From an uncultured Bacilli bacterium (GTDB lineage Bacteria; Bacillota_I; Bacilli_A; RF39; UBA660), in the NCBI GenBank assembly GCA_910587325.1, contig CAJUKB010000004.1:16988-80987 (forward strand): DNA of 64,000 nt, read 5' to 3'. Shown here one piece after another: positions 1,750 through 49,119 of this stretch. Made by a program: the position numbers and the translations under genes. The stretch's first letter is position 1; each line of letters opens with the position of its first letter. The notes beneath the pieces are model-generated. The model searched no databases, was not told the origin of the DNA, and saw only the letters and a program-made list of their open reading frames with translations.

Positions 1750-4700
1750 TTATTTGTTAGTGCTTTTTTCTTTGTATTCTTGGTAACGTTTTATGGCATT
1801 TTGTTTATTGATTTCTAATAGCTCGCTCGCTAATTTTTCATCTTTAATTTTTAAAGCATGGTATCTTGTTTCATTATCTAAAAAACTTTCATAAAGCTCA
1901 AAATTCGGTTCTTTAGAGTCCAAATACAATTTTTCTTCTTGTGGATGGTAACGCATTAAAAGTTGATAACCGACTTCTACTGCTAAAGCTTGCTCTTGAT
2001 TTGTACAAGATAGGCCTCCCTTTATACCATGTTCTACACATGGAGAATAAGCAATTACGATACTTGGGCCATCATGTGCTTCTGCTTCTTTTAAAGTTTT
2101 AATTGTATGAGCAAAATCTGCCCCTAGACAAATACTACCAACATAGCAATTTGGGTAACACATGGCAATTTTAAATAAATCTTTTTTGGCATTCTTTTTA
2201 CCAAAGTCAGCAAATTCTGCCACTTGTCCTACTTTAGATGATTTAGACATTTGGCCTCCGGTATTAGAGTATACCTCTGTATCAAGTACAAGTACTTTTA
2301 TTTTTTCATTGCTTGATAAAACATGGTCGATTCCTCCAAATCCAATATCATAAGCCCAACCATCCCCACCGATTGCCCAAACACTACGAGCCGGAATATA
2401 ATCTAGTAAATCTTTTAAATCATTTGGAATTGGTAAAGAGGCCAGTTCTTCTTTTAAAGTATACGTTATTTCAAAATCTTCTTTATTTTTTAGCCACAAT
2501 TCAAATTTTTCTTTTAATTCGTCCTCTACAGCAGGTAGAGATGTTTTCATAATGGATTCAATATGATTCCGTTTTTGTTTATAAGACATAAGCATTCCAA
2601 AGGAAAACTCAGCATTATCTTCAAATAAGGAATTTGCCCATGGAATCGTATACGGAGTAGAGGGAATACTTCCTCCATAAATACTAGAACACCCAGTAGC
2701 ATTCGCAATAACTAACTTTTTACCAACAAGTTGCGTAAGAAGCCTTATATAAGATGTTTCTCCACAACCGGCGCAAGCTCCTGAAAATTCAAAATAGGGA
2801 CGTACAAAACTTAAATCTTTTACTGTATCTTTTTTCTCGCTTTCTGGATTCTCATAATGGTTAAAATAGTAATCACTTATCTTTTGGTTCTCTTCCTCAT
2901 ATTCTCCAAAAGTAAGGGCTTTTTCTCCTTTTAATCCCGGGCAAATATTGATGCATAAGCCACAACTTGTACAATCAGCTTCACTAACGCTAACAAGATA
3001 GTTGTACTTTTCACTTCCAAGCATTGGTTTTCCAAACCTTTTATCTTCCGTTTTAAAAGAACGAATGACACTATGAGGGCAAACAAAGCTACAACGTCCA
3101 CATTCTATACAATTTTCGGGAATCCATTTTGCAACCTTATCCGCAATTTTACGCTTTTCTAATTTAGAAGTTCCACCAACAAACGAGCCGATGCAAACAC
3201 TTTCAAGTGCACTAACAGGAATATCGTAGCCTTCTCTTCTATTAATACATTCAAATAAGGTTTGGGGATTATTTTTAGTATAGCCATCTTCCTTTAAGGT
3301 GATTTCTATCACACTATCTATAGCACTTTCTATTGCTTTTTTATTATTTAAAATGACTTCTTCACCTTTGTTTTTAAAAAGTTCTTCAATCGTTTTACTT
3401 ACCAACTCTAATGAATTAGGAATACCTATAAGGTTTAAAATGACAACTTCCATAATTTTATTGATTTTGCCTTTGATTTTGTTTTCTAAAGCAATTTCAC
3501 TTGCATTAATGGTTAGGACTTTAATATGTTTCTTTTTAATAATCTCTTTATCTTCTTTACTAATTTTCTCTTCTAGTAAATGAGCATTTGAGGTATTAAC
3601 AAGTAAAATTCCATTTTCTTTTATCGTATTTAACATACTATATTTTTTAAAATATTCATCTTTTGTCACGACAACTAACATAGGATTCGTAACATAAAAA
3701 GGAGAATAAAATTCTTGATTCTTTATTCGTAAATTGCTAACGGTTACGCCGCCACTTTTTTTAGAATCGTATTCGAAGTAACCATCTCCAAACTTGTCAA
3801 GTTTCGAAAGAGCAAGGCTTAAAATATCTTTGCTTGCACTTACCATTCCATCGCTTCCAAAACCATAGATTAGGATTTCTTTTACATCTAAAGAAATAGA
3901 ATAGTCGTTTTTTTCTAAACTTAGATTGGTCACATCATCGGCAATACCAATTGTAAAGTTATCTTTTAGTTCGTTGTCAAGCATTTTAAATACGCTGTAA
4001 ATGTCACTTGGTGTTGTATTTTTGCTAGAAAGCCCGAATCTTCCTCCCACAATTTGAATATGTTCGTTTTTTAAAGCAGATAAAACATCCAAGTAAAGAG
4101 GTTCTCCTATACTGCCTGCTTCTTTCGTTCTATCTAAAACGGCAATTTTTTTAACGGTCTTTGGTAAAACTTTTTTTAGGTATTCCACACTAAAAGGACG
4201 ATACAAATGCACTTCTACAACCCCTATTTTAGCGCCTTTTTTGTTTTCTTCTTCTACTACTAGTTTAATGGTATCTACAACACTTCCCATGGCAATAATT
4301 ACGTTTTCGGCGTCCTCACTTCCATAGTAATTAAAAGGTTTAACTTGTGTACCACAAATTGCATTTACTTTTTCCATATACTGATTTACAATATTTGGCA
4401 TTGCGTTGTAATATTTATTTCTAGCTTCAACACTTTGAAAGTAAATATCTTCATTGGAAGCAAGTCCTTTTTCAATATTGTTGTCGACATTCAACATTTT
4501 ACGTTTGTATTCATTTATTTTGTCGTAATTGATTAACTTTAAAAATTCGGTATCTTCTATTTCTTCTACAGAATGAAGTTCATGACTTGTACGAAATCCA
4601 TCAAAGAAGTGAAGAAAAGGTAGACTTCCTTCGATACTAGAAAGATGAGCAACCGCTGCATTAGTGCGTACATCTTCTATATTTGTGCTTGCTAACATAC

Positions 4701-5657: not shown

Positions 5658-6017
5658 ATGTTAAAAGAGATATTAAATAATAAATTAGATAACTTATCAG
5701 CAGATTTAATTGAAGTTCAAAAAGATTTAGATGTTTGTTATAGGGGTTTTAAAAATATTAACTCAGATGATGAACGACATGAAATGATACAATTTTTATT
5801 AACAGTTCAAAATAATATGCTAAAAAATAGAGAAGAAATAGATAAAACTCTAAAACAACTTAAATTAGTGATAGAAGTTGAACAAGTTGAAAATGCTAAT
5901 GATTATGTAAAAGCTCTTTCAGAGGAAGATGTGCAATTATTAAGAGAAGCTTTTTATACCCCTTCACATCAAAATGATACACAATCGGAGGTTTTTGATA
6001 GTTCAATAACAAGATAA
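5658..6017 (+). CDS. Hypothetical coiled-coil protein
   Basis: 119 aa with strong RBS GGAGGAAAATATG. I recognise no conserved motif. Confidence 0.45.
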   Translation: MLKEILNNKLDNLSADLIEVQKDLDVCYRGFKNINSDDERHEMIQFLLTVQNNMLKNREEIDKTLKQLKLVIEVEQVENANDYVKALSEEDVQLLREAFYTPSHQNDTQSEVFDSSITR

Positions 6018-6035: not shown

Positions 6036-6076
6036 AAAAAAGTATGTTCTTTTTATTTAGAAATCATACTTTTTTT
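6036..6076. terminator. Hairpin (11-bp stem AAAAAAGTATG/CATACTTTTTT) between convergent genes, putative bidirectional terminator
   Basis: Inverted repeat followed by a T-run, located between the stop of 5658-6017 (+) and the stop of 6075-7358 (-). Confidence 0.45.
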
Positions 6077-7358
6077 ATATATTCTTTTTCTTACTTACGA
6101 ATAAATAACCAATTCCTACAAGAGAGACAACAGCAAGTCCACTATGTAAGAAAACATTTAAGGTACCCGTTTGAGCATTATTGGTATTTTCTACTAAGAC
6201 ATATTCACTGCAATGTTCTAAAGCAAATTCTACAAAACCATTTTTTACTTCTAAGTTTTTAGCTGCTTCTTCTAACTTACCATTTTCATTATAATAATAT
6301 AATGTTAATTTTTTGCCGTTTTTAAATTGTTCTTCCACATTTACTTTTACTTTTGTTCCAGTTGGTAAAATTCCATGATAAGCAAATTCTAATACTACTG
6401 ATTTGCGATTTTTAGAAATTAAATTTTCAATTTTCTCTTTGTTAGTACTTTTACCAACATTTATATTTAAGTTTATGTTTAAATCGGTATTTTCTATTTT
6501 GCTACCATCAAAAGTCCAAGTATATAAAAGCTTATTTTCATCATTGTATGTAGAAATATTGGCTATATAACCACTTTGTTTAAACGCTTCTAAAGTATCT
6601 TTTGTTACTCCTGTTTCTCCTATGTATAATTCTACTTCATTGTTCTCAAAAACCGGTTTTACTTCTTCTAGCATTTCTTCAAGTGTTTTTTTATCCCAAT
6701 CCTTTATTGTAATAGTTTTAAAAATTTCAACTTCTTTAAAATTGATATTACGAAAACTCATAGAGAAGCCTTCTTCGTCTCCTCCGCCACCATAAGCTTG
6801 CCAATCAGGATATTTTTGAGGAATGACTTTATCAATTAATTCGTTAAGAACATCATGACCCTTTTCAATGCTTTCTACTTTGTTTTCTTTTGTATTATAA
6901 ATGATTGTTTCATAGTCATAATTCTTATCTTGTAAAAAGATTTCTACTAAAATGTCTGTAGTTGTAAAACTTTCATTTTGCATTTCATAAAATTGAGCAA
7001 TTGTCATACCAGAGGTTAACGCTGTATTTTCATCTACAATTGTTCCTTCTTCTTTATTTGCACTACATGTTGTGGAAGTAACAATTTTTAAACCATCTGT
7101 TTCACATTTGCCATCTGAACAACTTCCACCAAATTGTTCATTATTTACATTTCTAATTAGAAGATTAATTCTCTCTGTTTGATTATTTAAAGTCATATTT
7201 TTAAGTAATTTAAATTTAACTCCTAATTTATTATCTTCTTTCTTTACACATAAATTGTTTAAATCAATAAAGTTAGAAGTCTGTTCTTCTGCTTGGACAT
7301 TTGCAGAAATACTTAAAGTAAATAATGCAAGTAATATTCCTATTATTTTCTTTTTCAT
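6075..7358 (-). CDS. Sortase-anchored surface protein with C-terminal NAQTG sorting signal (paralog of 8415-9926)
   Basis: 427 aa. Signal peptide MKKKIIGILLALFTLSISANVQA. C-terminus is NAQTGTLNV followed by a hydrophobic stretch and a KKKNI tail. The C-terminal region is homologous to that of 8415-9926. Confidence 0.7.
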   Translation of the reverse strand: MKKKIIGILLALFTLSISANVQAEEQTSNFIDLNNLCVKKEDNKLGVKFKLLKNMTLNNQTERINLLIRNVNNEQFGGSCSDGKCETDGLKIVTSTTCSANKEEGTIVDENTALTSGMTIAQFYEMQNESFTTTDILVEIFLQDKNYDYETIIYNTKENKVESIEKGHDVLNELIDKVIPQKYPDWQAYGGGGDEEGFSMSFRNINFKEVEIFKTITIKDWDKKTLEEMLEEVKPVFENNEVELYIGETGVTKDTLEAFKQSGYIANISTYNDENKLLYTWTFDGSKIENTDLNINLNINVGKSTNKEKIENLISKNRKSVVLEFAYHGILPTGTKVKVNVEEQFKNGKKLTLYYYNENGKLEEAAKNLEVKNGFVEFALEHCSEYVLVENTNNAQTGTLNVFLHSGLAVVSLVGIGYLFVSKKKNI

Positions 7359-7386
7359 TTTTTCTTTCCTTTCCTATGATAAGCTC

Positions 7387-7415
7387 ATTATACCCCCACC
7401 CGAAGGCTTTGTCAA
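7387..7415 (-). promoter_or_regulatory. Consensus promoter TTGACA-N17-TATAAT with an interrupted G-tract (GGGGGTGGG) in the spacer
   Basis: Minus strand: -35 TTGACA at 7410-7415, -10 TATAAT at 7387-7392, RBS AGGAAAGGAAAG before the ATG at 7358. Paralogous to the G10 promoter at 9970-10000. Confidence 0.5.
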
Positions 7416-7433
7416 GGTTTTTCGAGTATAAAA

Positions 7434-8309
7434 TTAATCTATTCGTTTGGCATGAATTACCCGTCTTTTGGTCGTTCCTCTTGCACCAGCGCAAGTAGAA
7501 AGCGTAAGGATTTTATCATTCGTATTCACAGTTACATCTCTAAAGCCAAAACTTCTATTTTTTATGGTCGTTATAAATTCTTGAAAGGCATTTTTATTTT
7601 CAAAAGAAGTTGTAATATAGTATTCTTCCATTTCAATTGTATAATAACTAAAGATTTGGTATTTATGTAACGTATGTTCCAAATCAAATAAATAAATCAT
7701 ATCGGCATTTTCTTCTTCAAAGTAATTTTTTTTAAAGATATCACTTAAAGAACCAAACATTGTATTATTAGGAGTGTGATGACCAAATAAAACCACATTG
7801 TCATCTTCTAAAGAAGTATTTCGATAATCCATAAAGATACTTCCAATTGAATTTTCTTTTTTCTTAAAAGAATGATTTAGATAGTAAGTATTATCACTTG
7901 CTTGGACGATGGGATTATTAACGTATTTATGGTTTAATACTAACCATCCGACAATATCATTATTCGTTTGTTTTAATTTAGAAAAATCAATTTTCATTTC
8001 TTCCACGTTTTCTTTTTCCTCAATTCCTTCATAAACTTCTGGTGGTTCGATAAATTCATCTAAAAGTTCTTCGATTTCATTTTGATTTTCTTTTAACTCT
8101 TTTTTAAACGTAATTAATTGATACATAGAAAAAAGGAAAACACTAATAAAAAACAAAAGTAAAAGCAAACGAATTATTTTTTTATATTTCAATTTTAATT
8201 TTCTTTTTGATTTTTTTCCTTTCTTTTTTGATTTTATTTTTTGCTTATTTTTTGAAGTTTTTAAATTAGCATGAGCAATATCATTGTTTTTCTTTTTGTT
8301 TTTATTCAT
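7434..8309 (-). CDS. srtB: Class B sortase
   Basis: 291 aa. Lys-rich N-terminus plus TM. Motifs DIVGWL, LFGHH and catalytic LTLSTC, typical of SrtB-type sortases. Flanked by two proteins carrying an N-A-Q-T-G signal. Confidence 0.75.
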   Translation of the reverse strand: MNKNKKKNNDIAHANLKTSKNKQKIKSKKKGKKSKRKLKLKYKKIIRLLLLLFFISVFLFSMYQLITFKKELKENQNEIEELLDEFIEPPEVYEGIEEKENVEEMKIDFSKLKQTNNDIVGWLVLNHKYVNNPIVQASDNTYYLNHSFKKKENSIGSIFMDYRNTSLEDDNVVLFGHHTPNNTMFGSLSDIFKKNYFEEENADMIYLFDLEHTLHKYQIFSYYTIEMEEYYITTSFENKNAFQEFITTIKNRSFGFRDVTVNTNDKILTLSTCAGARGTTKRRVIHAKRID

Positions 8310-8336
8310 GTATTATCCTTCCATTCTTTATAAACC

Positions 8337-8366
8337 ATCTTACGATTAAAGCAAAAAGATTGTCAA
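8337..8366 (-). promoter_or_regulatory. Putative sortase promoter (TTGACA-18-TAAGAT)
   Basis: Minus strand: -35 TTGACA at 8361-8366, -10 TAAGAT at 8337-8342. An AT-rich hairpin GTTTTAAAA/TTTTAAAAC lies just upstream and may be a terminator for the preceding gene. Confidence 0.35.
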
Positions 8367-8414
8367 TAAAAAAGTTTTAAAACCAAATATTTCAATTTTA
8401 AAACTCTTTTTGTT

Positions 8415-9926
8415 TTATTGTTCTTTTTTCTTACTTATAATTAAGTACCCTATTCCTAACAAAGAAACAACAGCAAGTCCACTATACAAGACAACATTTA
8501 AAGTACCCGTCTGCGCATTGTTATTCTTTTTATGGTATCCATCACTTGGAACCAAAACATAGGTTGAGAAATGAGTAAATGTTAATTTTACATTGCCATC
8601 GGTTGCTTTTAAATTTTCTGCTACAACTTCCATTTGGTTTGTTTCAGGATTAAGGTATAATAGGGTTAAAGTTTTATTTTGTAGATAGTCCTTTACTTTT
8701 TCATTTACTTCTTTTTCTTGGACTGTCCAGCAAGCATTATATTTGTCTGGCTCTTTCTTATAATCGTATTGACTACATTGATATTTCTCATCTAATTTTT
8801 CCCAATATAAATTTCTAATATATTGTTCAATATTCACATTTAATTCATAATTCGTTGGTAAATTACCATGGTAGGTAAAATCAATATACAAAGCGTCATT
8901 TAAATCCATTAAATTGGCAATTTTGTCTTTGTTAATGCTTGTTTTCATTGAAATTTGATGTTCATAAGTAAAGCCTTTTTCCACCGTATTTTTTATATCT
9001 TTACCATTTAAATAGTAAGTCGAAGTTCCTACACTCGTGTCTTGAATAAACAAAACGGTTAAGTCTTTTCCTTTTAAAGCGTTAATTACTTCTGATATAT
9101 CTTCTTTAGAACTTCGAACTGAAAAATTATATTTTCCATAGCCATAAATACAGTCATGTGGAGAGTCTGGCATCACTTCTTGATACTTATCCAAATGGTT
9201 CAATATTTGAGTTAAACCTGCCGCACTTGAACCCATTTCACCGAAATCTCTTGCAGATATTGTCCAGTCAATTTTTATATCTTGTTTTCCAGTAGCACTT
9301 ACTGTTATACTAGATTTGCCTAAATCTTTTGCTTTGGTTACAACTTCTACTCCTGTAGGTTCACTGCTATATCCATAAGCTTCCCACCAAGTTTTCGGTT
9401 CACTTTTATAGTTACTAAACCCATATTCATTTGTATATTCCCACCAAGTTGGTTTTGAGGTGTAAGTAGATTTGCAATATTCACTATCCTTTGAGAAGTT
9501 ACCGTTTTCATCTTGACAATATTCATAATTTTTTAAGAACTCTTCAAAAGTGGCCTTGTTAAAATCTTCAACGTATCTTTCCCAATTTTGTTTTTCATTG
9601 GCATAATCATAAGGTTTTACTTCTACATCTAAAATGTTTGTGTTACTACTAACTGCAGAAACATTAGACACATTCTCAAAAAGAATATTTTCATTGTAAG
9701 GTTTGTTGTGAAAAGGCTTGTGAGGGTCCCAACTTCCTCGTCCTCCTTCATCATTATGCGCAATGCTATATTCCATTTGCATGTTTTCCCATTTTGTAGC
9801 ACCATAAGTTCTTGAAAGCGCTCTATCTTTAAAATACTCTTCCCAGTATCCATCCGCATAAACATTTGCACTTCCTAAAAATAAAAGTGTTGCAAATATC
9901 CCCAAGTAAGTAATTATTTTTTTCAT
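8415..9926 (-). CDS. Sortase-anchored surface protein with NAQTG sorting signal
   Basis: 503 aa. Signal peptide MKKIITYLGIFATLLFLGSANVYA. C-terminus NNAQTGTLNVVLYSGLAVVSLLGIGYLIISKKKEQ. Confidence 0.7.
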   Translation of the reverse strand: MKKIITYLGIFATLLFLGSANVYADGYWEEYFKDRALSRTYGATKWENMQMEYSIAHNDEGGRGSWDPHKPFHNKPYNENILFENVSNVSAVSSNTNILDVEVKPYDYANEKQNWERYVEDFNKATFEEFLKNYEYCQDENGNFSKDSEYCKSTYTSKPTWWEYTNEYGFSNYKSEPKTWWEAYGYSSEPTGVEVVTKAKDLGKSSITVSATGKQDIKIDWTISARDFGEMGSSAAGLTQILNHLDKYQEVMPDSPHDCIYGYGKYNFSVRSSKEDISEVINALKGKDLTVLFIQDTSVGTSTYYLNGKDIKNTVEKGFTYEHQISMKTSINKDKIANLMDLNDALYIDFTYHGNLPTNYELNVNIEQYIRNLYWEKLDEKYQCSQYDYKKEPDKYNACWTVQEKEVNEKVKDYLQNKTLTLLYLNPETNQMEVVAENLKATDGNVKLTFTHFSTYVLVPSDGYHKKNNNAQTGTLNVVLYSGLAVVSLLGIGYLIISKKKEQ

Positions 9927-9969: not shown

Positions 9970-10000
9970 ATTATACCCCCCCCCCGAAAACGTTTGTCAA
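9970..10000 (-). promoter_or_regulatory. Consensus promoter TTGACA-N19-TATAAT with a G10 homopolymer in the spacer (candidate phase-variable promoter)
   Basis: Minus strand: TTGACA at 9995-10000, G10 at 9976-9985 within a 19-nt spacer, TATAAT at 9970-9975, RBS AAGGAAGGG before the ATG at 9926. Confidence 0.55.
9976..9985. repeat. C10/G10 homopolymeric tract
   Basis: Ten consecutive C on the plus strand in DNA of about 25-28 % GC. Confidence 0.9.
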
Positions 10001-10019: not shown

Positions 10020-10979
10020 CTAATTTTCTCTTTTTGTTCTTTCCTTATCCATTTCTTTAATAATATACACAGGTCTTTTCTTTGCTTCTAAATATGTTTT
10101 AGAAAGATATTCTCCAATGATTCCTAAACAAAACAATTGAATGCCACTAACCAAAAATAAAATGCAAATCATAGAAGGCCAACCACTGGTTGGGTCTCCA
10201 AATAAAATGGTTTTTAAAACAATCACTAAAATCATTATAAAAGAAATGACACAAAATAGAATACCTATAAACGCTGAAATTGTTAAAGGCATTGTTGAAA
10301 ACGAAACTATTCCCTCAATGGCATATTTAAAAAGACTAAAAAAAGACCAACTTGTTTCTCCAGCAATTCTTTCTTTGTTTTCATATTCGAGCCATTTCGT
10401 ATTAAAGCCTACAAATCCAAATAATCCTTTAGAAAAACGATTGTATTCTTTTAAACTTAAAATGGCATTTCTAACATTCTTTCGCATTAAACGATAATCT
10501 CTTGCTCCATCAACAACTTCAATGTTGCTAATTTTGTTTATCAATTTATAAAACATTCTGGCAAAAAAACTACGAATTTTTGGTTCTCCCATTCTGGTAA
10601 CTCTTCTAGTAGCAACGCAATCTACATCTTTTTCACTTTTTAAAATGGCAAACATTTCAAGGAGAAGTTCAGGAGGGTCTTGTAAGTCAGCATCCATTAA
10701 AGCAACATAATCTCCTTTGGCATATGTAAGACCTGCTAACATAGCCGCTTCTTTACCAAAATTTCTTGATAAAGAAAGATAGTGAATACTTGAATTACGT
10801 TTACATAAGTCTTTCATTATTTTTAAGGTATTGTCTTTGGAACCATCATTGACAAGAATAAGTTCAACGTCTGTTTTTTTGAGTTCTTTTTTGATTTTTA
10901 AGATTTCATGATAAAAGAGTGGCAATGCCTCTTCTTCGTTATAACAAGCAACTACAATACTTATGGTTTCCTTTTTCAT
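10020..10979 (-). CDS. GT2 polyprenyl-phosphate glycosyltransferase (GtrB/CsbB/ArnC-like)
   Basis: 319 aa. SIVVACYNEE, DGSKDNT and DADLQD motifs, with two C-terminal TM helices typical of GtrB-like enzymes. Confidence 0.8.
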   Translation of the reverse strand: MKKETISIVVACYNEEEALPLFYHEILKIKKELKKTDVELILVNDGSKDNTLKIMKDLCKRNSSIHYLSLSRNFGKEAAMLAGLTYAKGDYVALMDADLQDPPELLLEMFAILKSEKDVDCVATRRVTRMGEPKIRSFFARMFYKLINKISNIEVVDGARDYRLMRKNVRNAILSLKEYNRFSKGLFGFVGFNTKWLEYENKERIAGETSWSFFSLFKYAIEGIVSFSTMPLTISAFIGILFCVISFIMILVIVLKTILFGDPTSGWPSMICILFLVSGIQLFCLGIIGEYLSKTYLEAKKRPVYIIKEMDKERTKREN

Positions 10980-12634
10980 TTTGTTTTCTCCTTTTTAATG
11001 ATTAAATAGATTGCAAATAAACCTACAGTGAATAAACTTATTTTATTTCCTACTCTACCTAGTGTAGTATTTTCATAAGTTACTTCGATGATTGCTTCTT
11101 GATTGGCTTCCATTTCGATAAAGCCATACTGGTTTTCTTTATAGTTGAGAAAAGTACTTTCACCGTTATAACCCATCATTTTTATGGTATATCCCAAATA
11201 ATATAATCTAGGTAGTTCTAGCTTTGCATAGTTTGTATTGGTAATTTTAAATCTTAAATTAGGAGTACTGTCTTCTATAATGCTTATATCGGCGTTTCCA
11301 TCGACGACTAAAATTTCTGTACTTCGATTGTGAAAGTAATCGATATGGTTTTTTGCATTCATCGGCAGATACTCTTCTTGGTACCCCATACCAACCTGAC
11401 TTAAATCGTAATAGCTCAAATCTTCTTTATGATACGTTTGCATGAGTATCGGAAGAATGGCAAAAAGAAAACAAGAAAAAATACAAAGTGCGAGCACTTT
11501 TTTTGATTTTAATTCGTTTAGAGCATAGTAAGACAATATGCTTAATCCAAAACATGTAAGTACTCCTAAGCGATAAGGAAATTGAATCATCAGTAAAAAG
11601 TTTGGCATTAAAAACCACGGGAATAAATGGGAAGAAAACCATATTCCTAGACATGTACAAATAACGCCCAAACAAAATAAAAAATCATTCTGAAGTTTTT
11701 CTTTAAATTTGTGTCTCTTCTTTAATTCATAAAGCAAATAAATGACTAGACCAAGAGCTACCCAATTTAGCATGTGAAAACCTATTTTTTTGCCACCAAG
11801 CAAGAATTGAAATAAGAACAAAGCATTGCCATACACACCAAAACGATTAGACATTTCGCCCTTTGTAAAAGCAACGTAATTTCCATTTAACAGATGAGTA
11901 AATAGTGGAATTAGAAACGGAAGGCTGATTAAAATGACTAAAAAGGTTGCGCATAATAAACGAAGAATAGTTTTTTTATTCCAAACTTTTTTAAAATGAA
12001 AAATAAGAAATATGCTTAAGAAAAGAGTTACGTAAATACTCATTACTAAGTGGGAGTTCAGTAGTCCAACGTATCCTAAGACAAAATAAAAATAAAATTT
12101 TTTAGACTGATTGTGGAACAAATAATAAATACCTAAAAAAATGAGAGGTAAAAATACAAAAACAAAAGATTCCGCTAATGCATCACGATATAAATAATCG
12201 TAAATTTTATAAGGTGCCGTTATATAAAATAGTGTAGCAATAAAGGATAAGTTCTTATGTTTTGTAATGGTTTTCATAAAAGTATACATCGTAATACCCG
12301 ATAAAAAGTTCAGTAAAAAATCGGTTATTTTGATGGATGTAAAAATAGTTCCAGGGGTATATTTATAAATAAGTGCTGTTATAAAATGAGGAAGATTGGG
12401 ATAGAAAATATTGGTTCCATAGCCAAAGTTATTGGCAATGAACGGAAGAATTTTTAAGTTTGCTATATTGGACCATTGTAAATTTTTAATAAAAGAGAGA
12501 ACATTAGCTACATGAAAACCCGTATCATGGCCATAAAAATAGTTATTACTTAATAGTGGAAAAAGTAGAAAGATTGAAATTAAAAAAATAAAAAAATAAT
12601 ATTTATCTATTTTAATTGGTATTCTTTTGTGCAT
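10976..12634 (-). CDS. Polytopic membrane protein, putative GT-C type glycosyltransferase (GtrC/YfhO-like partner of GtrB)
   Basis: 552 aa with more than 10 predicted TM segments. Start overlaps the stop of the GtrB-like gene. RBS AAAGGAGAAA. Confidence 0.45.
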   Translation of the reverse strand: MHKRIPIKIDKYYFFIFLISIFLLFPLLSNNYFYGHDTGFHVANVLSFIKNLQWSNIANLKILPFIANNFGYGTNIFYPNLPHFITALIYKYTPGTIFTSIKITDFLLNFLSGITMYTFMKTITKHKNLSFIATLFYITAPYKIYDYLYRDALAESFVFVFLPLIFLGIYYLFHNQSKKFYFYFVLGYVGLLNSHLVMSIYVTLFLSIFLIFHFKKVWNKKTILRLLCATFLVILISLPFLIPLFTHLLNGNYVAFTKGEMSNRFGVYGNALFLFQFLLGGKKIGFHMLNWVALGLVIYLLYELKKRHKFKEKLQNDFLFCLGVICTCLGIWFSSHLFPWFLMPNFLLMIQFPYRLGVLTCFGLSILSYYALNELKSKKVLALCIFSCFLFAILPILMQTYHKEDLSYYDLSQVGMGYQEEYLPMNAKNHIDYFHNRSTEILVVDGNADISIIEDSTPNLRFKITNTNYAKLELPRLYYLGYTIKMMGYNGESTFLNYKENQYGFIEMEANQEAIIEVTYENTTLGRVGNKISLFTVGLFAIYLIIKKEKTK

Positions 12635-12655: not shown

Positions 12656-12686
12656 ATTATAACCCCCCCCCCAATGAAAAAGACAA
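12656..12686 (-). promoter_or_regulatory. Promoter-like TTGTCT-N19-TATAAT with a G10 tract in the spacer
   Basis: Minus strand: TTGTCT at 12681-12686, G10 at 12663-12672, TATAAT at 12656-12661, RBS AAAGGAG before the ATG at 12634. Confidence 0.5.
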
Positions 12687-31461: not shown

Positions 31462-32227
31462 CTGTAAACAACGGGAGTTTTATAATCTAAGGAACCATGA
31501 ATGCGAATGTTATTATACCAGTTTACATAATCAAATAACTCGCACTCTAACTCCTCAAATGAGGAAAATCTTCGGTTATAAGCAAACTCCGTTTTTATGA
31601 TTTTATATGTCGCTTCTGCTACCGCATTGTCATAGGGACAGCCTTTTTTAGATAGGGATCTCTTTATTCCAAATGTTTCTATTAATTCCTCTATGATTTT
31701 ATTTTTAAATTCATTTCCTCTGTCTGTATGAAATATATTTATCTTTCTTAAATCATAAGAAATTTTACTGAATGCTTTATAACTAGTTTTGCATCCTTAT
31801 GAATTCCTGCTGCATACCCTATAATTTCTCGATTCCATAAATCGAGTATTAAACAGATGTAATTCCATTTTCCTGCTACATTTACATACGTTAAATCACT
31901 TACGACTACATCTAATTGTTTTTCTCTTTCAAATTCTCGATTTAAGATATTTTCTCCTTCTTCCTCATTGCAAGATGCTTTATGTACTTTAAATTGTTTA
32001 ACTGTATAGTTACTTACTAAACCATTTAAGTCCATAATTTTTCTTATTCTTCTTAGACTTACTTGGTAGCCTAATTCTTGCAATTTTACTTTTATTTTTC
32101 TTGAGCCATAATTATTTCTACTTTCTTTAAATATCTTTATGATTAATTCTTCTAGTTCTTTATCTTCACGTTTGTTTTTTCTTTCGTAGTAGACAAGAGC
32201 TCTGGACACTTTTAGAGTTTTACACAT
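31462..32227 (-). pseudogene. IS3-family transposase OrfB (DDE integrase core), frameshifted
   Basis: The 159-aa ORF 31748-32227 carries the rve-domain N-terminal half. The remaining C-terminus (...HGSLDYKTPVVYRQQMSL*) lies in another frame between 31462 and about 31750. Confidence 0.55.
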
Positions 32228-32268
32228 TGCACTGATACTATACTTGTCTCGATTGGCTTTTATTATTT

Positions 32269-32559
32269 TTATTTTCGTCCCATTATCAGCGCTGCTTGCT
32301 TTAAAATATCATTCTCCATTCGCAACCGTTTATTTTCTTTCTCTAGTTCTATCAAACGATTCTCTTCTTCTGTTCGATTATCTTTTGCTTTAAAGGATCC
32401 TGTGGTGTTAAATTGTTTTATCCAATTGTTTAATGCTGATGGCGTTAATTCATATTCTCTTATTAATTCACATCGTTTTTTTCCGTTATTGTATAAGTTT
32501 ACTACTTGTTGTTTAAATTCTTCTGTATATTGTCTTTTTTCTCTTCGGTTACTTTCCAT
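32269..32559 (-). CDS. IS3-family transposase OrfA (HTH)
   Basis: 96 aa. MESNRREKRQYTEEFKQQVVNLY...LKQAALIMGRK is typical of IS3 OrfA. Confidence 0.75.
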   Translation of the reverse strand: MESNRREKRQYTEEFKQQVVNLYNNGKKRCELIREYELTPSALNNWIKQFNTTGSFKAKDNRTEEENRLIELEKENKRLRMENDILKQAALIMGRK

Positions 32560-32683
32560 TTTCTTTTCCTTCTTTCTTACTTCTCATATTATAATCTGTC
32601 CTTTTCTTTTTTGTCTAATTTATTGTAACCAATCCAATATGAAAATGTACTAATTTTTATTATGATAAAAGTGGTGATAAAAA

Positions 32684-33930
32684 GTGGCAAAAATTGCAAA
32701 AACATTGAAAGAATTAAAAGAAAATTTAGAAATAGAAGATTACATAGAAGAAACAGAAATAGAAAATTATGATTTGCATATTCTAACAAATGAGATAAAT
32801 GAAGAAGCATCTTATTTAATGGATAAACGAGAAGAAGAATATATAAAACACTCTTTAGAAGATATAGTAATCATAGTAATATTAGGATTATTTGCAAATA
32901 GTAACACCTTTGTAGAAATTGAAATATTTGCAAAAAAACATTATGAATGGCTTAGGAATTATCTAGAACTTTCTTATGGTTTGCCTTCTATTTGTACAAT
33001 TAAAAGAGTAATAGCAGCATTGAATCCGAAAGAATTAGAGGAAATGTGTAATCATGTTTTTTTAAACTTTGTAAAAGTAACTCAAAAACCAATATATGTA
33101 AAAAATGGATTAAAATTGATGGATATAAATAGTTTAGATGGAAAAACGGCAAATAATTCTAAAAGAAACACAATAGAAGGATATATAAAACCAACAAATG
33201 CGATGAGTGCCTATTCTGTTGTTAATGAAAAATGTTTAGCAACAGAATTTATAAGTGAAAAGACAAATGAAATACCAACATGTCCAAAATTATTAAAAAG
33301 GTTAAATATCAAAGATGTAGCAATCACATTTGATGCTTTAAACACCCAAAAAGATACAATAGATTACATAGTAAAAAATGAGGGATATTATGTTGCACCC
33401 ATAAAAGATAATCAAAGCATACTAAAGGAAGATTTGGAACTATATTTTCAAGATTTATATTTAATAAAAGTTGGAAATGCCAAAGTGTATGAAGAAATAG
33501 AAAAATCTCATAATCAAGCAGAAAAAAGAACATATATATTTACGAATGATATAGATTGGATATACTAAAAAGAAAAATGGTCAGATTTAAAAAGTATAGG
33601 TGTACTTATAAAAGAGATAAATGGAGAAGAAAAAGAAAGAAAATATTTCATAAGCAATATAAAGGCAAATCATATAGAAATATTATCTAAAATAATTAGA
33701 AATGAATGGAGCATAGAGAATAAGTTACATTGGTATTTAGACATGGTATTTTTAGAAGATAAGAATAAATGTTATATTGAGAATAGTCAAAAAAACTTAA
33801 ATATAATGAGAAAATTTTGTCTTGGAATATTAAAAATAGTGAAATCTCATTACAATATGAGCATGAATTCTATTCGTTTTCAATTGAGTATTGATTTTGA
33901 AAATGAAATAGAGCAACTTCTTAAATTGCT
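32684..33930 (+). pseudogene. ISAs1-family (H-repeat-associated) transposase with an internal TAA stop
   Basis: N-terminal DDE_Tnp_1_assoc-like region (DIVIIVILGLFANSNTFVEIEIFAKKHYEWLRNYLELSYGLPSICTIKRVIAAL). A single in-frame TAA at 33566-33568 (DWIY*KEKWSDLKSIG) is followed by the conserved C-terminus (WSIENKLHWYLDMVFLEDK...). Confidence 0.65.
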
Positions 33931-39688: not shown

Positions 39689-40468
39689 TTAAACCTCCTC
39701 TGCAAACCCCTTCGATAACTTTTTAAATATGAAATACCCGATGACACAAAATAGAAGACAACCTCCTATTAAAACCGCTAGCGATATTATATCAGGCATT
39801 TGTTTATAAAAGAAGATATCTCGATAAGAATTTATAATCGTCCCCATCGGATTTAATTTAATTAAGGTAGCAATTGGTGTTCCTGCAAACATTTCAGGAG
39901 AATATAAAATGGGAGTTGCGTAAAATAGCATATTTACAACAAAGTTGATAATGTACTCTAAGTCTCTTATATAAATATCAATGGCACTTGTAATAAAAAC
40001 AATTCCTAAAGAAAATAAAAATTGAGCAAGAACAACTACAGGAAGTAATAGAATGTAAGGGCTAAAACCTATACCAGAGCAAATAAGAAAAATACCAATA
40101 ATTAAACAAGAAATTAAGAAATTAATCATTCCACTTGTTACTACCGAAATAGGTAGAATTTCTCTTGGAAAGTATACTTTTTTTATAATCCCCGCATTTC
40201 CTAAAACGGTTGTTGTTCCAAGGGCAATCGAATTTGTAAACCATGTCCAGGGAAGAATTCCAATAATAATAAATGTTACATAGTGTGGCTCTGTACTTTT
40301 TAAAATAAAGGGGAAAACAATTGCATAGACAAGTGTCATTAAAAGTGGGTTTACAAAAGACCATAAAATTCCTAAAAAGGAACCCTTGTATTTGCCACGA
40401 ATTTCTTTTTTCACGTTTGTTTTTAAAAGTTCTCGATAGTTATATAATTCTTTAATCATCTTAACCAC
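39689..40468 (-). CDS. ABC-2 type polysaccharide/teichoic-acid export permease (Wzm/TagG-like)
   Basis: 259 aa, 6 TM helices, ABC-2 signature region. Overlaps the upstream ATPase gene. Confidence 0.7.
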   Translation of the reverse strand: MVKMIKELYNYRELLKTNVKKEIRGKYKGSFLGILWSFVNPLLMTLVYAIVFPFILKSTEPHYVTFIIIGILPWTWFTNSIALGTTTVLGNAGIIKKVYFPREILPISVVTSGMINFLISCLIIGIFLICSGIGFSPYILLLPVVVLAQFLFSLGIVFITSAIDIYIRDLEYIINFVVNMLFYATPILYSPEMFAGTPIATLIKLNPMGTIINSYRDIFFYKQMPDIISLAVLIGGCLLFCVIGYFIFKKLSKGFAEEV

Positions 40469-41189
40469 ACACCTTCATGTATTCGTCAATCACGTTTTCA
40501 TTTCCATCCATTTTGATTTTTCCTTCATGAATCCATACAAAACGCGTACATAATTTTTTTATAGACTCTAAACTATGGCTTACGATTACAATTGTTTTGT
40601 TACTATTTTTTAGTTCTTCTAATTTAGAAAAACACTTTTCTTGAAAATGAGCATCTCCTACGGCTAGGATTTCGTCAATTAAAAGTATTTCTGCATCTAC
40701 ATTAATGGCAACAGAAAACGCAAGTCGCATGTACATTCCTGATGAATAAGTACGAATAGGACTATCAATAAATTCTTTAAGTTCTGAAAATTCGATAATA
40801 TCTTCTAAACGTTTGTCTATTTCTTGTTTCGTTAAGCCAAATATAGCAGCATTAAAGTAAATATTTTCACGACCTGTAAAATCTGGATGAAACCCTGCCC
40901 CTAATTCTAGTAAAGAGGTTAACTTTCCTTCTGTTGTTATTTTTCCTCTTGTAGGATAAATAATTTTCGTCATTAGTTTTAAAAGAGTTGATTTTCCACT
41001 ACCATTGACGCCAATTAAGGCTACTGTTTCTCCTTTTTTGATATCTAAAGAAACATTTTCTAATACCGTATGAACATCCGCTTTTTTCTTATTCCAAAAT
41101 ACAAGTCTTTCTTTTAATGTGCTTGGTTTGTCATAGTAAAGTTTAAAGTTTTTTGTTACATCTTTTACAACAATTGCATTTTTAGGCAT
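40461..41189 (-). CDS. ABC transporter ATP-binding protein (Wzt/TagH-like)
   Basis: 242 aa. Walker A GVNGSGKST, ABC signature LSSGMYMRLA, Walker B LLIDE. Confidence 0.8.
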   Translation of the reverse strand: MPKNAIVVKDVTKNFKLYYDKPSTLKERLVFWNKKKADVHTVLENVSLDIKKGETVALIGVNGSGKSTLLKLMTKIIYPTRGKITTEGKLTSLLELGAGFHPDFTGRENIYFNAAIFGLTKQEIDKRLEDIIEFSELKEFIDSPIRTYSSGMYMRLAFSVAINVDAEILLIDEILAVGDAHFQEKCFSKLEELKNSNKTIVIVSHSLESIKKLCTRFVWIHEGKIKMDGNENVIDEYMKVCG

Positions 41190-42404: not shown

Positions 42405-43328
42405 TTAATAATTCCATTTTATTTTATTAAAGCAATTTATACCCCCCCCCCGTTTGAATTTGTTATAGAGATTACGAATTTTACTAATGTATGTCCAACT
42501 TTTGCTATTTAATATTTGTTTTAAAGAATCATGAGATTTAGTCAATTCATTATTTAATTTTTTTATTATTGTTTCTTGTTTTTGATTTTGCATTTTCATA
42601 TTATTGAAATCTTTTTCTAGTGTCGTTATTTTTTCATTTAGTTCCTTTATGATAACTTCTTTGCTTTTATTATGTTCGTGGATAAAAAAGTAATCGTTGT
42701 TATACCATAAAACATTTATGAATTGTACTTTTTTGTATTTGTGTTTCCAAAGGGAGTACATAAAGGAAAGTTGATCTCTTCTACTGTATCGTTTTACCAT
42801 ATTCCACCAACAATTTTGTACTTTTTTAATTTTGCTATTATTAGTTTTAAATGCAAAAAAATTATTAGCAGTAAGTCCATAATGTTCGGGAAAATTTTCT
42901 TTTTTTAAAAATGTCATTTCTTCCTCAATAATCTTTTTATCGTCTTTTTTCCAATCAATACATACTATTGCCTCTTCATAAATACAATCTCTATCGGAAT
43001 GGATAAGAGAAAAAAAGTCGTAATTTTTAAGGTCACATTCTTTTTTAATAAACTCACTAACTGGTTTTCTTAATTCTATATTAGCGTCCATATAAATGGC
43101 CAAATCATAATTTTTAAAGATTTCTTCACAACCAAGAATTTTGATTTTTCTTTCTAATCTAATGAAATCTAAGAGTTCTGGATTATCTAAGGACATAATT
43201 TTCCAAGTTTTGCTTTTAATGTTTGGGTTATTTGTAAAACAATAATAATCTATTTCTTTATCTATATACTTTATTTCTTTTAAGGTATCATAATCTCCAG
43301 TTATTGCTGTATATACCATAGTTTTCAT
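42405..43328 (-). CDS. Putative glycosyltransferase-like protein (DUF616/TOD1-MUCI70-like) with a coiled-coil C-terminus
   Basis: 307 aa. N-terminal AITGDYD motif. The C-terminal Gly-Gly-Gly is encoded by the G10 tract. Confidence 0.4.
   Translation of the reverse strand: MKTMVYTAITGDYDTLKEIKYIDKEIDYYCFTNNPNIKSKTWKIMSLDNPELLDFIRLERKIKILGCEEIFKNYDLAIYMDANIELRKPVSEFIKKECDLKNYDFFSLIHSDRDCIYEEAIVCIDWKKDDKKIIEEEMTFLKKENFPEHYGLTANNFFAFKTNNSKIKKVQNCWWNMVKRYSRRDQLSFMYSLWKHKYKKVQFINVLWYNNDYFFIHEHNKSKEVIIKELNEKITTLEKDFNNMKMQNQKQETIIKKLNNELTKSHDSLKQILNSKSWTYISKIRNLYNKFKRGGGINCFNKIKWNY
42442..42451. repeat. C10/G10 homopolymeric tract inside the 3' end of CDS 42405-43328, followed on the minus strand by TATAAA
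   Basis: Encodes RGGGI 16 codons before the stop. On the minus strand G10-TATAAA lies 42-60 nt upstream of the ATG of 41239-42393. Confidence 0.9.
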
Positions 43329-44987: not shown

Positions 44988-46517
44988 TTATTCTTTTTTG
45001 TTGTTTTTAGTAGGTTCTTCTAAATACCGTTTAGCGTCTTTAATAAAACTAATCACAATCATAATTATCACTATTCCTATTGGAAAAGCCGCGACTATGC
45101 TCACAGATTGTAAATTATTCATAGAACTTTGTGAAAATACCAAAGCGATTGGTAATAAAATTAATAAGATGCACCATATTAATTGCATCATTCTATGCGG
45201 TTTTTCATCTTTAGCAAGTTTGTGATAACTATAGCATGATGCCGTATAAGCAATGGAATCGAAAGAAGTTGCGTAAAATGCAATCATTGTAATTAATAAT
45301 AATATTAAAATAAACGGAAAACATGGAATGGTTTTAATTATAGAAATAATAATATTATAAATATCTCCACCATTTTGATACATTGCCACAAAATCAAATT
45401 GCCCACTCATTTGAAGGCCTAAAGAATGATTTCCTAATATTATAAAACTAATAATTGTAGACCCTACACCAAAGATATATCCCCCAATAATCGTTTGTTT
45501 AACAGTTCTTCCTTTTGATATATTACCAATAAAAAAGGGAGCAGCAACACACCAAACCATCCAATAAGCCCAATAATAAATTGTCCAATTTTGTGGAAAA
45601 CTTGTTTCTCTTAAAGGATCTGTTGTCGTCGATAATCCTATAAAATTTTCTATCATTCGTCCTAATGAAGAGAAACCATTTTCAATAATAAATCGCCCTT
45701 GTCCTCCAAAAAATAAAACAAATAATAAAATACCAAAAAATAAATAAATACAAATTTTTGCAAGTAAACTCATTCCTTTAAATCCATGTAAAAGCGTATA
45801 CGTATATACAATACAAGTTATTAAAAGAATAATTATGGTAATTACTGTCCTGCTTATGGTTATATGAAATACTTCTCCAATAATTGCAGCCATTAAAGGA
45901 GTAGCAACGCTAAATGTTGTAGCAGTTCCAGCAAGTAATGCAAATACTGCTAGCAAATCTACTATTCTTCCTGGTAATTTATCTGTAAATTTTCCAAGTA
46001 AAGGCCTACACGCTTCTGAATATTTTTGTTTTTCTCTTTTTCTTACATGTAACATAAAGCCAAAAGCAATTGCAAGAACTAAATAAAAACTCCACGGAAT
46101 AAAACTCCAATGAAATATTGGAAATACGCTTGCCCAATCTTCCATATTTCCTAAATGCGCAATATGACTTTCTCCTGCATACATAATCCATTCCGAAAAT
46201 GAATAGAATAAGATGTCTGCCGCAAGTCCACACGTAAACATCATAGCCCCCCAAGTAAAGAAGGAATATTTTGGTTTTTCATTTTTTTTGCCTAATACAA
46301 TATTTCCATACTTCGAAAACGCAATAATTAAGGACAAAATAAATATCCCTAAACCCATTATCAAATAATATACACCAAAAGTATCCCCAAAAATAAATCT
46401 AATTTTACTTAAAACTAGATTAGATTCTGTAGGTAGAAAAATAAATAGGACGCATAGAGCAATAATTAAAACAAGTGGCATTAAAGTGATTAGCCAATCA
46501 ATTTTCTTTGTTTTCAT
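44988..46517 (-). CDS. BCCT-family (betaine/carnitine/choline) transporter, probable choline importer
   Basis: BCCT signature WTIYYWAYWMVWCVAAPFFIGNISKGRT, about 12 TM helices. Start taken at the internal Met MKTKKIDWL. The ORF track starts at 46565. Confidence 0.7.
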   Translation of the reverse strand: MKTKKIDWLITLMPLVLIIALCVLFIFLPTESNLVLSKIRFIFGDTFGVYYLIMGLGIFILSLIIAFSKYGNIVLGKKNEKPKYSFFTWGAMMFTCGLAADILFYSFSEWIMYAGESHIAHLGNMEDWASVFPIFHWSFIPWSFYLVLAIAFGFMLHVRKREKQKYSEACRPLLGKFTDKLPGRIVDLLAVFALLAGTATTFSVATPLMAAIIGEVFHITISRTVITIIILLITCIVYTYTLLHGFKGMSLLAKICIYLFFGILLFVLFFGGQGRFIIENGFSSLGRMIENFIGLSTTTDPLRETSFPQNWTIYYWAYWMVWCVAAPFFIGNISKGRTVKQTIIGGYIFGVGSTIISFIILGNHSLGLQMSGQFDFVAMYQNGGDIYNIIISIIKTIPCFPFILILLLITMIAFYATSFDSIAYTASCYSYHKLAKDEKPHRMMQLIWCILLILLPIALVFSQSSMNNLQSVSIVAAFPIGIVIIMIVISFIKDAKRYLEEPTKNNKKE

Positions 46518-47244
46518 TTTTTTCGCCTGCTTTCTTAAAATTAGCGTAACTGTTATCAATTGCAATTAATTCTTGATAATTATCTATTTCTACTATATCT
46601 TCCTTTTCTATTTCATAAACGTGTAAATCAAATTCTTCAGGATAACAAAACATTGCAATATTATCCCAATAAATGGTAGTATTGTTTTTATTTATGAACT
46701 CTTCTTCCACATATTTTTTTAATTTTTTTCCATCTTCTTTTGTCCATCTTGAAATGCTCCACAAACGGTATCCATCTTTTCCACCCTCAATACTACAATT
46801 TGTAATTTTTCCACAGTTATCAGTTTGCAAAAACCACTCATTTGTATATTCTTTGCACCACGAACAACTATATCCAGATTTTTCAAAGTATGGATTTAAT
46901 ATGCTTGGATTTTTAATTATTAAGTCGGCGTCTGTAATAATAATTTCTTCTAAAAATTCTCTAGCAACATACAAAGAAGAAATATTGTTGGTTTCTTCAT
47001 AATATTTATTTTCAATTAATTTTATATTCGGATAGTCTTCTAACAAAATATTAAATTTATCTTTTAGGTATCCAACAACAATATATATTTCTTGTATTCC
47101 ATTTTGGTATAAACCCTTTATAATAGTATCAATCATTCTTACGCCATTTACTCTTATTAATGGTTTTGGCGTTTCAATTGTAACAGGGTTTAATCTGCTT
47201 CCCTTGCCCGCTGCTAAAATAAGGGCTCTTTTTATTTTATTCAT
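46498..47244 (-). CDS. licC: CTP:phosphocholine cytidylyltransferase (LicC-like nucleotidyltransferase)
   Basis: 248 aa. ALILAAGKGSRL nucleotidyltransferase motif, in the same operon as a choline kinase and LicD. Confidence 0.65.
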   Translation of the reverse strand: MNKIKRALILAAGKGSRLNPVTIETPKPLIRVNGVRMIDTIIKGLYQNGIQEIYIVVGYLKDKFNILLEDYPNIKLIENKYYEETNNISSLYVAREFLEEIIITDADLIIKNPSILNPYFEKSGYSCSWCKEYTNEWFLQTDNCGKITNCSIEGGKDGYRLWSISRWTKEDGKKLKKYVEEEFINKNNTTIYWDNIAMFCYPEEFDLHVYEIEKEDIVEIDNYQELIAIDNSYANFKKAGEKNENKEN

Positions 47245-49024: not shown

Positions 49025-49119
49025 AATATCATATTATCTTTTAAATGGGAAGTAAAAAGCATATTTTTTTCTCTATATAAAATATTTTCCTTATGCTATA
49101 ATTTTAGTAGGTGATAGTA

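Follow-up and report, generated by a model that had tools for sequence, protein, structure and literature searches.

To our knowledge, the specificity of sortase B is known from only a handful of cultured pathogens. The described systems closest to the one reported here are SrtB/IsdC of Bacillus anthracis (NPKTG) and Staphylococcus aureus (NPQTN), in which the substrate gene lies beside the enzyme gene and a signal with Asn at P4 and Thr at P1 is read by extended recognition; SrtB of Clostridioides difficile ((S/P)PxTG), a class B enzyme of a gut Firmicute that anchors several adhesin-like, non-iron proteins; and SrtB of Listeria monocytogenes, where one enzyme has two neighbouring substrates, Lmo2185/SvpA (NAKTN) and Lmo2186 (NPKSS) (PMC11987632). 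Here we describe a cassette at positions 6075-9926 of a stretch of 64,000 nucleotides from an uncultured Bacilli bacterium (contig CAJUKB010000004.1; the whole stretch is called the window below), in which a class B sortase gene lies between the genes of two secreted proteins, SubA and SubB, that both end in an NAQTG sorting signal. From comparison of sequences we consider it probable that this is a self-contained cassette for surface display in a walled, low-GC gut bacterium: a class B sortase with two NNAQTG wall-anchored substrates, whose promoters are switched by poly-G tracts.

The cassette shares with the B. anthracis and S. aureus systems the features just named, and their enzymes are the best solved-structure matches of the sortase, with the same triad and the TLxTC motif. 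It differs from them in having Ala and not Pro at P3, Asn at P5 and T/S-L/M-N after the scissile bond where they have Asp and Asp-Glu, and two substrates compared to one in the IsdC systems; relatives carry several cassettes per genome. Neither SubA nor SubB has a NEAT or other haem-uptake domain. An Isd-type SrtB system for haem uptake was considered and rejected, as Pfam and NCBIfam gave no match (no NEAT) in either substrate and the neighbouring genes encode PFOR and glycosyltransferases. With Listeria the cassette shares the N-A-x-T core, the presence of two neighbouring substrates and, in the NAQTS form found in relatives, a P1' residue other than Gly (the L. monocytogenes structure 5jcv is matched at E 9e-29), whereas P2/P1' are Gln/Gly here and Lys/Asn there and the substrates are unrelated. 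The C. difficile SrtB structures 5gyj and 4ux7 match the sortase at about E 1e-33, yet the motif class differs. We know of no Listeria SrtB substrates under repeat-tract phase variation, and some C. difficile sortase substrates are controlled by cyclic di-GMP riboswitches, not by homopolymer tracts.

All three genes at 6075-9926 are carried by the minus strand, in the order SubA, sortase, SubB, within a window of about 27-30% GC. The genes and sorting signals are as follows.

8415 to 9926, minus strand: SubA, 503 residues, consisting of a signal peptide (residues 1-24), a predicted Ig-like beta-sandwich ectodomain, a C-terminal stalk module and a sorting signal; C-terminal end ...KKNNNAQTGTLNVVLYSGLAVVSLLGIGYLIISKKKEQ
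8418 to 8519, minus strand: SubA sorting signal, consisting of NAQTG (8505-8519), a hydrophobic helix and a KKKEQ tail
7434 to 8309, minus strand: sortase, 291 residues, with TLSTC at residues 269-273
6075 to 7358, minus strand: SubB, 427 residues, consisting of a signal peptide, a predicted beta-rich ectodomain, a C-terminal stalk module (about 6183-6545) and a sorting signal; C-terminal end ...ENTNNAQTGTLNVFLHSGLAVVSLVGIGYLFVSKKKNI
6078 to 6179, minus strand: SubB sorting signal, consisting of NAQTG (6165-6179), a hydrophobic helix and a KKKNI tail

An earlier note on this DNA had described the order as substrate, sortase, substrate and had given each substrate a promoter of its own, and both statements agree with what we find (TTGACA-17-TATAAT before SubB and TTGACA-19-TATAAT before SubA). 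The same order is retained in two related loci, L001 and L002, whose sortases are 66-68% identical to the one in the window. The note had also called the two substrates paralogous, which holds for the C-terminal module and the sorting signal and fails for the N-terminal two-thirds: the 36% identity between SubA and SubB (E 2e-25) is confined to the last ~150-200 residues, their common part being a module of ~120 residues plus the sorting signal, and similarity between their N-terminal two-thirds was not detectable. Both proteins start with Sec-type signal peptides, in which MKK... and a hydrophobic stretch are followed by ANVYA↓D and ANVQA↓E, respectively (here and below, ↓ marks a cleavage point).

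The sortase is an ordinary class B enzyme (MEROPS C60B). TIGR03064, the NCBIfam equivalog model of class B sortases, scores it at 188.9 bits against a curated cut-off of 153.75, while other NCBIfam sortase models give 17.5 against 160 (class E) and 69.9 against 200 (the LPKTxAVK-specific SrtB model), and Pfam finds the Sortase domain in the open reading frame (ORF). All 15 of the 15 PDB sequence matches are SrtB or SrtB-family chains, with B. anthracis SrtB at the top (1rz2, E 2.9e-38), S. aureus SrtB at about 2e-35, the SrtB enzymes of C. difficile, L. monocytogenes and Clostridium perfringens and the chain 4y4q ('Sortase, SrtB family') lower down, and the Streptococcus pyogenes chain 3psq as the weakest (E 6e-21). 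The triad H177, C273 (within TLSTC, 7491-7505) and R282 is invariant across 25 homologues (alignment A1) and aligns with H140, C233 and R243 of B. anthracis SrtB, which are the catalytic residues of that enzyme (PMC11987632). A Lys-rich cytoplasmic N-terminus of ~45 residues is followed by one membrane anchor and the catalytic domain. Recognition by B. anthracis SrtB extends past the pentapeptide to P5, P2' and P3', its R116 reading an acidic Glu at P3' (PMC11987632); the R116 position is Ser154 in the sortase of the window, which fits the non-acidic T-L-N found here after the scissile bond.

Both substrates end in NNAQTG-TLNV, a hydrophobic stretch of ~20 residues and KKK, with NAQTG 34 residues from the C-terminus, so that each has the signal peptide, the motif 17-45 residues from the C-terminus, the hydrophobic stretch and the basic tail that together define a substrate with a tripartite sorting signal. 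All 64 kb were scanned in six frames for signals of class A, class B and C. difficile type, using the motifs LPxTG, N-[APVS]-x-[TS]-x and [SP]PxTG and requiring that a hydrophobic stretch and a basic tail come after the motif. Three matches were obtained, namely SubA (8519), SubB (6179) and an NSLSS at 40771 outside the listed genes; no LPxTG or [SP]PxTG signal was among them. As the matches are essentially these two signals, the arrangement of a sortase between two substrates is not a chance pattern. The C-terminal fragment of SubA alone is matched by TIGR01167 (LPXTG_anchor) from T-G onward, at 18.6 bits against a cut-off of 15.9. The two signals are identical at 27/34 positions in the window and at 16/34 in L001, and the high identity here suggests concerted evolution or a shared constraint from one sortase.

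Conservation of the signal goes beyond five residues. In 73 collected N-A-x-T signals, Asn occupies P5 in 71 and P4 in all 73, Gln occupies P2 in 63, and P1' is Gly in 37 and Ser in 34, followed by S/T at P2', L/M at P3', N/D at P4' and V/I at P5'; the extended block is therefore N-N-A-Q-T-[G/S]-[S/T]-[L/M]-[N/D]-[V/I], and because P5 and P2'-P5' are conserved too, the conserved unit is of about ten residues, in parallel with the long recognition site shown by experiment for B. anthracis SrtB (PMC11987632). Some SubA orthologues carry NNPQTS, NNLQTS, ANPKTG or ENPQTG in its place. This exchange with NPQT[G/S]-type forms in relatives makes NAQT[G/S] a lineage-typical class B variant and not a signal of a different kind, and Listeria Lmo2185 (NAKTN) provides an earlier case of Ala at P3 (PMC11987632). 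From these alignments we infer that the sortases of this clade have the NNAQT[G/S] block as their cognate signal and that it is equivalent in function to NPQT[G/S]. Neither NAQTG nor its commoner sister form NAQTS was found as a sorting signal in the searched literature. The earlier note had proposed a class B sortase, with a classification outside class B as the finding that would overturn it, and two substrates ending in NAQTG, a hydrophobic helix and a Lys-rich tail, the motif being one that fits the class B pattern without being among those characterised; the profile search that it had suggested, the PDB matches and the triad place the enzyme inside class B, the two C-termini are as it had described them, and NAQTG proves to be a variant of the pattern that the literature we searched does not hold.

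Further support for the link between enzyme and substrates comes from related loci. A scan with an alignment of sortase homologues, limited to a single genome of each species, gave 61 loci, all from uncultured metagenome-assembled genomes (MAGs) labelled Tenericutes, Bacilli, Erysipelotrichaceae, Lachnospiraceae and others, many of whose isolate names point to mouse or rabbit gut catalogues. In 46 of these loci the sortase gene is immediately preceded, on its own strand, by the end of an ORF that bears a signal with its hydrophobic stretch and basic tail, and in 49 such an ORF is adjacent to the sortase. Most of the related loci have a single substrate, and the Lachnospiraceae relatives of the sortase adjoin SPQTG or NPRTG proteins. 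This distribution supports the assignment of SubA and SubB as substrates of the neighbouring sortase; that the sortase is dedicated to them is plausible, judged from one window. Sortase B is expanded in this lineage, with several cassettes per genome in relatives. L012 (sortases at 2822-3496 and 7001-7744) and L042, from the same MAG, hold several substrate-sortase B cassettes, some of them in tandem, each with an NNAQTS substrate.

The promoters of the three genes, all on the minus strand, differ in the sequence between their -35 and -10 boxes.

9970 to 10000, minus strand: SubA promoter, TTGACA (9995-10000), then aacgttttc and G10 (C10 on the plus strand, 9976-9985), then TATAAT (9970-9975); spacer of 19 nt
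7387 to 7415, minus strand: SubB promoter, TTGACA, then aagccttc and GGGTGGGGG (7393-7401), then TATAAT; spacer of 17 nt, 12/12 consensus positions
8337 to 8366, minus strand: sortase promoter, TTGACA-18-TAAGAT, 10/12 consensus positions, without a homopolymer tract

A consensus scan misses the SubA promoter because its spacer exceeds 18 nt. In the SubB promoter of the window a T interrupts the G run and the spacing is optimal. G or C runs of at least 7 are rare, with only three in the window, one of which is the tract in the SubA promoter, and no A or T run reaches 10. For comparison we used ten contigs from other samples (L062-L071), in which SubA is 97% identical and the DNA is 99.3-99.6% identical over 2.7-9.5 kb. 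All indels relative to these ten contigs lie in G tracts, except one codon indel common to all ten: the window has an extra SubA codon (~9755-9757), and this is the only indel outside the G tracts. The tract in the SubA promoter is G9 in L071, G10 in most contigs and G12 in L062, and that in the SubB promoter, uninterrupted in the contigs, is G9 in L063 and L071, G10 in five contigs, G11 in L062 and G12 in L070. Two of the properties by which a phase-variable promoter is recognised, a homopolymer of at least 8 between -35 and -10 and a tract length that varies among near-identical strains, are found at this locus. The tract also extends to distant relatives, as TTGACAAA-N-G(8-10)-TATAAT precedes the substrate genes in the diverged loci L001, L002, L005, L045, L047 and L053, and in L042 and L052 the same element stands just downstream of the sortase, the next gene in L042 encoding a membrane-anchored protein. 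That a G run is kept in genomes so rich in AT points to selection acting on the tract itself.

A homopolymer between the -10 and -35 boxes is an established transcriptional switch, for example in Neisseria fetA (poly-C) and porA (poly-G), and the promoters described here resemble these in the position of the tract in the promoter spacer, in lengths within the 9-14 range and in strain-to-strain length differences (PMC5320596). They differ in belonging to a Gram-positive-type gut commensal lineage and in standing before genes of sortase substrates. No combination of phase-variable promoters with a sortase was found in the searched literature. The variation in G-run length suggests slipped-strand phase variation of the substrate promoters, in which the slippery run probably switches each substrate gene on and off at random. 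Slipped-strand mispairing in a run of G8-12 would shift the spacing between about 17 nt, which would be the on state, and 19-21 nt, which would be weak or off, so that each substrate would be expressed in a stochastic on/off or graded manner while the sortase would be expressed independently. In the organism of the window SubB would then appear to be locked on, through the G-to-T interruption and the 17-nt spacer, and SubA to be in a weak register with its 19-nt spacer.

The steps that follow expression can be proposed by analogy. After Sec export the C-terminal helix and the basic tail would hold the SubA and SubB precursors in the membrane, Cys273 of the sortase would attack the Thr-Gly bond of NAQT↓G, and the acyl-enzyme would be resolved by a peptidoglycan precursor, leaving the substrate covalently attached to the cell wall. 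Cleavage at this bond, the wall acceptor and the anchoring are what we infer from the known chemistry of class B enzymes. Related MAGs are labelled 'Tenericutes', yet peptidoglycan is a plausible acceptor, because the window encodes an LCP-PASTA protein, an NlpC/P60 hydrolase and a glycopolymer cluster (see below), from which it would follow that the organism presumably has a peptidoglycan wall.

Several observations weigh against the reading of the locus as a class B cassette with switched, wall-anchored substrates. The C-terminal fragment of SubB falls under the TIGR01167 cut-off (12.3 against 15.9), and no dedicated SrtB-target model in NCBIfam matched either substrate C-terminus, only the generic LPXTG_anchor model responding. 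NVQTG, which looks similar on the surface, was not cleaved by C. difficile SrtB in vitro (PMC4155245), and resemblance of motifs therefore does not by itself guarantee processing. The tract-length differences come from short-read metagenome assemblies, in which poly-G is error-prone, and most SubA promoters have the 19-nt spacer, which could mean that the tract has a role other than on/off switching. These last points are also what favours the view that the length differences are a sequencing or assembly artefact, or a neutral strain polymorphism, and that the substrate promoters are constitutive: all the related contigs are assemblies of this kind, homopolymers of at least 10 are prone to error, G10 occurs in most contigs, and the commonest SubA spacer offers no obvious on state. 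However, no other indel occurs in up to 9.5 kb of AT-rich sequence, save the codon common to all ten contigs, the tracts vary independently within one contig (G12 and G11 in L062, G9 and G9 in L071), and G8-G10 is kept at the same promoter position beside sortases only 45-68% identical, in genomes of ~27% GC. We therefore regard the artefact or constitutive view as unlikely, though it is the alternative to be taken most seriously.

Other objections concern the fate of the substrates. The C-terminal helices might be plain membrane anchors and NNAQTG a juxtamembrane linker, with the sortase acting on other proteins; many relatives of the stalk module do end in a motif-free transmembrane anchor (P0210, P0216, P0186-P0188), and cleavage of NAQTG is a prediction from sequence. 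We consider this very unlikely in view of the position of the block, which keeps the N-[A/P]-x-T-[G/S] register exactly and lies as far from the C-terminus as is canonical, its exchange with NPQT[G/S] and NPKTG in orthologues, its co-occurrence with the sortase gene in 46-49/61 loci and the fact that no other candidate substrate is present in the window. One sortase between two substrates with the same signal also resembles small pilus islands, and SrtB of S. pyogenes, aided by the cofactor SipA, polymerises pili (PMC11987632), so that the enzyme could be a pilus polymerase as in the S. pyogenes FCT locus and SubA and SubB pilins that are joined to each other. This was rejected as scarcely probable: the pilus-type enzyme 3psq is the weakest structural relative, compared to E 1e-35 to 1e-38 for the wall-anchoring SrtB of B. 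anthracis and S. aureus, neither substrate has a pilin, CnaB or isopeptide domain in Pfam, no SipA-like or signal-peptidase-like gene was seen among the neighbours scanned, most related loci have a single substrate, and the same stalk module and signal occur on enzymes such as GH85. Wall anchoring of both substrates by the neighbouring class B sortase is thus the reading that we prefer.

The part that SubA and SubB have in common includes the stalk module, which is widespread. A SubB-family profile matched 3,267 representative clusters at E <= 1e-3 and 1,707 at E <= 1e-10, mostly in the C-terminal module, which is attached to GH85 endo-beta-N-acetylglucosaminidases and to LRR, FIVAR and Big_2 proteins, among others, and what directly follows it is always either a plain transmembrane anchor or one type or another of sortase signal. 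In the window its hidden Markov model (HMM) matches SubA and SubB only. No Pfam family covers the module at E <= 1, its profile gave chance matches only against PDB sequences, and a sequence-profile relationship to ZU5, GPS or FIIND was not detected. With the whole proteins, Pfam and NCBIfam gave no match, relaxed thresholds adding only chance TIR-like matches on the C-terminal part of SubA, and a Foldseek search of the SubA model against the PDB gave no match with E < 0.03. Structure models predict that the ectodomains are non-enzymatic Ig-like and ZU5-like beta-sandwiches, and we put forward the hypothesis that the stalk module folds like the ZU5/FIIND/GAIN autoproteolytic domains. Two candidate sites would fit such a function.

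8565 to 8573, minus strand: SubA H452-F453-S454, candidate autoproteolytic site in the turn between the last two stalk strands
6207 to 6215, minus strand: SubB H382-C383-S384, candidate autoproteolytic site at the junction with the last stalk strand

H452, F453 and S454 are all invariant in a 30-sequence alignment of the SubA family (A2), and S384 is one of only five invariant columns in a 39-sequence alignment (A3), in which H382 and C383 are at least 90% conserved. DSSP strands 445-450 and 455-460 flank the SubA site in its AlphaFold2 (AF2) model and strands 375-379 and 382-390 are assigned in that of SubB, the placement of the motif between the last two strands being taken from these two AF2 models only. 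H-x-S with the conserved last-strand pattern is found near the C-terminus of 195 of the 204 fetched proteins (HCS in 150, HFS in 29).

Self-cleavage is known for FIIND and GAIN, where the cut falls at H-F↓S, S-F↓S or H-L↓T in a loop that directly precedes a long C-terminal strand (PMC3210808, PMC3482391), and ZU5-type processing has been predicted for bacterial surface proteins by Zhang et al. (PMC3482391). The stalk module is like these domains (HF↓S in PIDD and Nup98, SF↓S in CARD8/NLRP1, HL↓T in adhesion G-protein-coupled receptors (GPCRs)) in having H-[F/C]-S before the last long strand, where HFS and SFS sites have been described (PMC3210808), and, as in GAIN, in standing directly beside a membrane or wall anchor. 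It is unlike them in that position -1 is usually Cys and that sequence profiles detect no relationship, and its best structural matches are the ankyrin ZU5 domains, which do not cleave. We therefore advance only tentatively, as more doubtful than probable, that the module is an undescribed bacterial counterpart of the ZU5/FIIND/GAIN domains which would cleave itself at H-F↓S in SubA and H-C↓S in SubB. Were this so, a stub of ~14-20 residues would stay linked to the wall through the sortase, and the ectodomain, kept in place as in adhesion GPCRs by nothing but the last beta-strand, could come off under force.

The cassette borders a ~45-kb wall-glycopolymer cluster (~10000-53500) with many GT2 and GT4 glycosyltransferases, GtrA, GT-C-like membrane proteins (DUF6020, DUF2142, DUF6056), acyltransferases, a flippase, an O-antigen-ligase-like fusion and a glycosyl transferase family 4 protein (PF00953), a family that we take to include MraY and TagO. 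Features of the window that bear on the cell wall are listed here.

894 to 1412: NlpC/P60 hydrolase
39689 to 41189: ABC-2 exporter of the glycopolymer cluster
44988 to 46565: BCCT transporter, first of a phosphocholine decoration set
46498 to 47244: LicC-like protein of the same set
47237 to 49024: choline kinase of the same set
49111 to 49929: LicD of the same set
56773 to 58872: LCP (LytR-CpsA-Psr) ligase fused to a PASTA domain, an unusual fusion

Two further G runs were noted in this cluster. A tract at 12663-12672 (C10 on the plus strand, G10 on the minus strand) stands just upstream of a TATAAT-like box, before an operon of a YfhO-like gene (10976-12634) and a PgfS-like GT2 gene (10020-10979). 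It is G11 in L065 and G10 in the other near-identical contigs, and given this variation the glycosylation operon may be phase-variable too. The other, at 42442-42451, is a minus-strand G10 with TATAAA after it; it falls within the 3' end of a TOD1/MUCI70-like glycosyltransferase ORF (42405-43328), ~50 nt upstream of the likely start of a DUF1972/GT1 gene. A change in its length would alter a promoter, put the tail of the upstream gene into another reading frame, or do both. Glycosylation of the substrates by the GT2/YfhO-like pair, as by S. mutans Pgf on adhesins, was considered and set aside: the pair was not detected beside the sortase in L001, L002 or other loci, the only exception being a 38%-identical GT2 ~4 kb upstream in L046, and without conservation of the pair beside the sortase the link to protein glycosylation is unsupported.

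At 31748-33568 the polysaccharide cluster is broken by transposase-related fragments, one an HTH_21 ORF and the other a DDE_Tnp_1-associated ORF, and the GC skew changes sign locally there. Beyond the cluster, two likely secreted proteins are encoded at 53485-54897 and 54912-56666, one with a Cadherin-like beta-sandwich and the other with a weak dockerin type I match near the C-terminus. Both lack the stalk module and a sorting signal, and they are unrelated to the module, since its HMM matched only SubA and SubB. On the other side of the cassette, a 119-residue ORF at 5658-6017 on the plus strand is convergent with SubB; it has no family match and occurs as a gene call in near-identical contigs only. 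In the closest genomes (L001-L003) a large membrane protein of ~720-740 residues, encoded upstream, adjoins the cassette and not PFOR or a polysaccharide cluster, which indicates that cassette neighbourhoods differ between species.

Read from these sequences, the extended NNAQT[G/S] signal is an uncharacterised form of the class B signal that is spread across the lineage. Its ten-residue form NNAQT[G/S][S/T][L/M][N/D][V/I], derived from about a hundred natural examples, is used by a whole clade of uncultured gut Bacilli; as the substrates are now annotated as hypothetical, the signal serves as a search pattern for surface proteomes, and the sortase and its signal are a candidate orthogonal sortase/tag pair for protein ligation. 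The poly-G promoters and the ZU5-like stalk go beyond what is described for sortase B systems. Slipped-strand switching has been documented mostly in Gram-negative pathogens and mycoplasmas, and the promoters hint at its use by gut commensals of this lineage to vary the proteins anchored in their walls. Autoproteolysis of the stalk module, if it occurs, would assign a function to an unannotated family of thousands of members, and with more than 3,000 clusters containing the module, GH85 glycosidases and LRR adhesins among them, this would be a widespread new processing step for Firmicute surface proteins. A self-cleaving stalk together with poly-G promoters would, if true, give the lineage a switchable and releasable surface coat.

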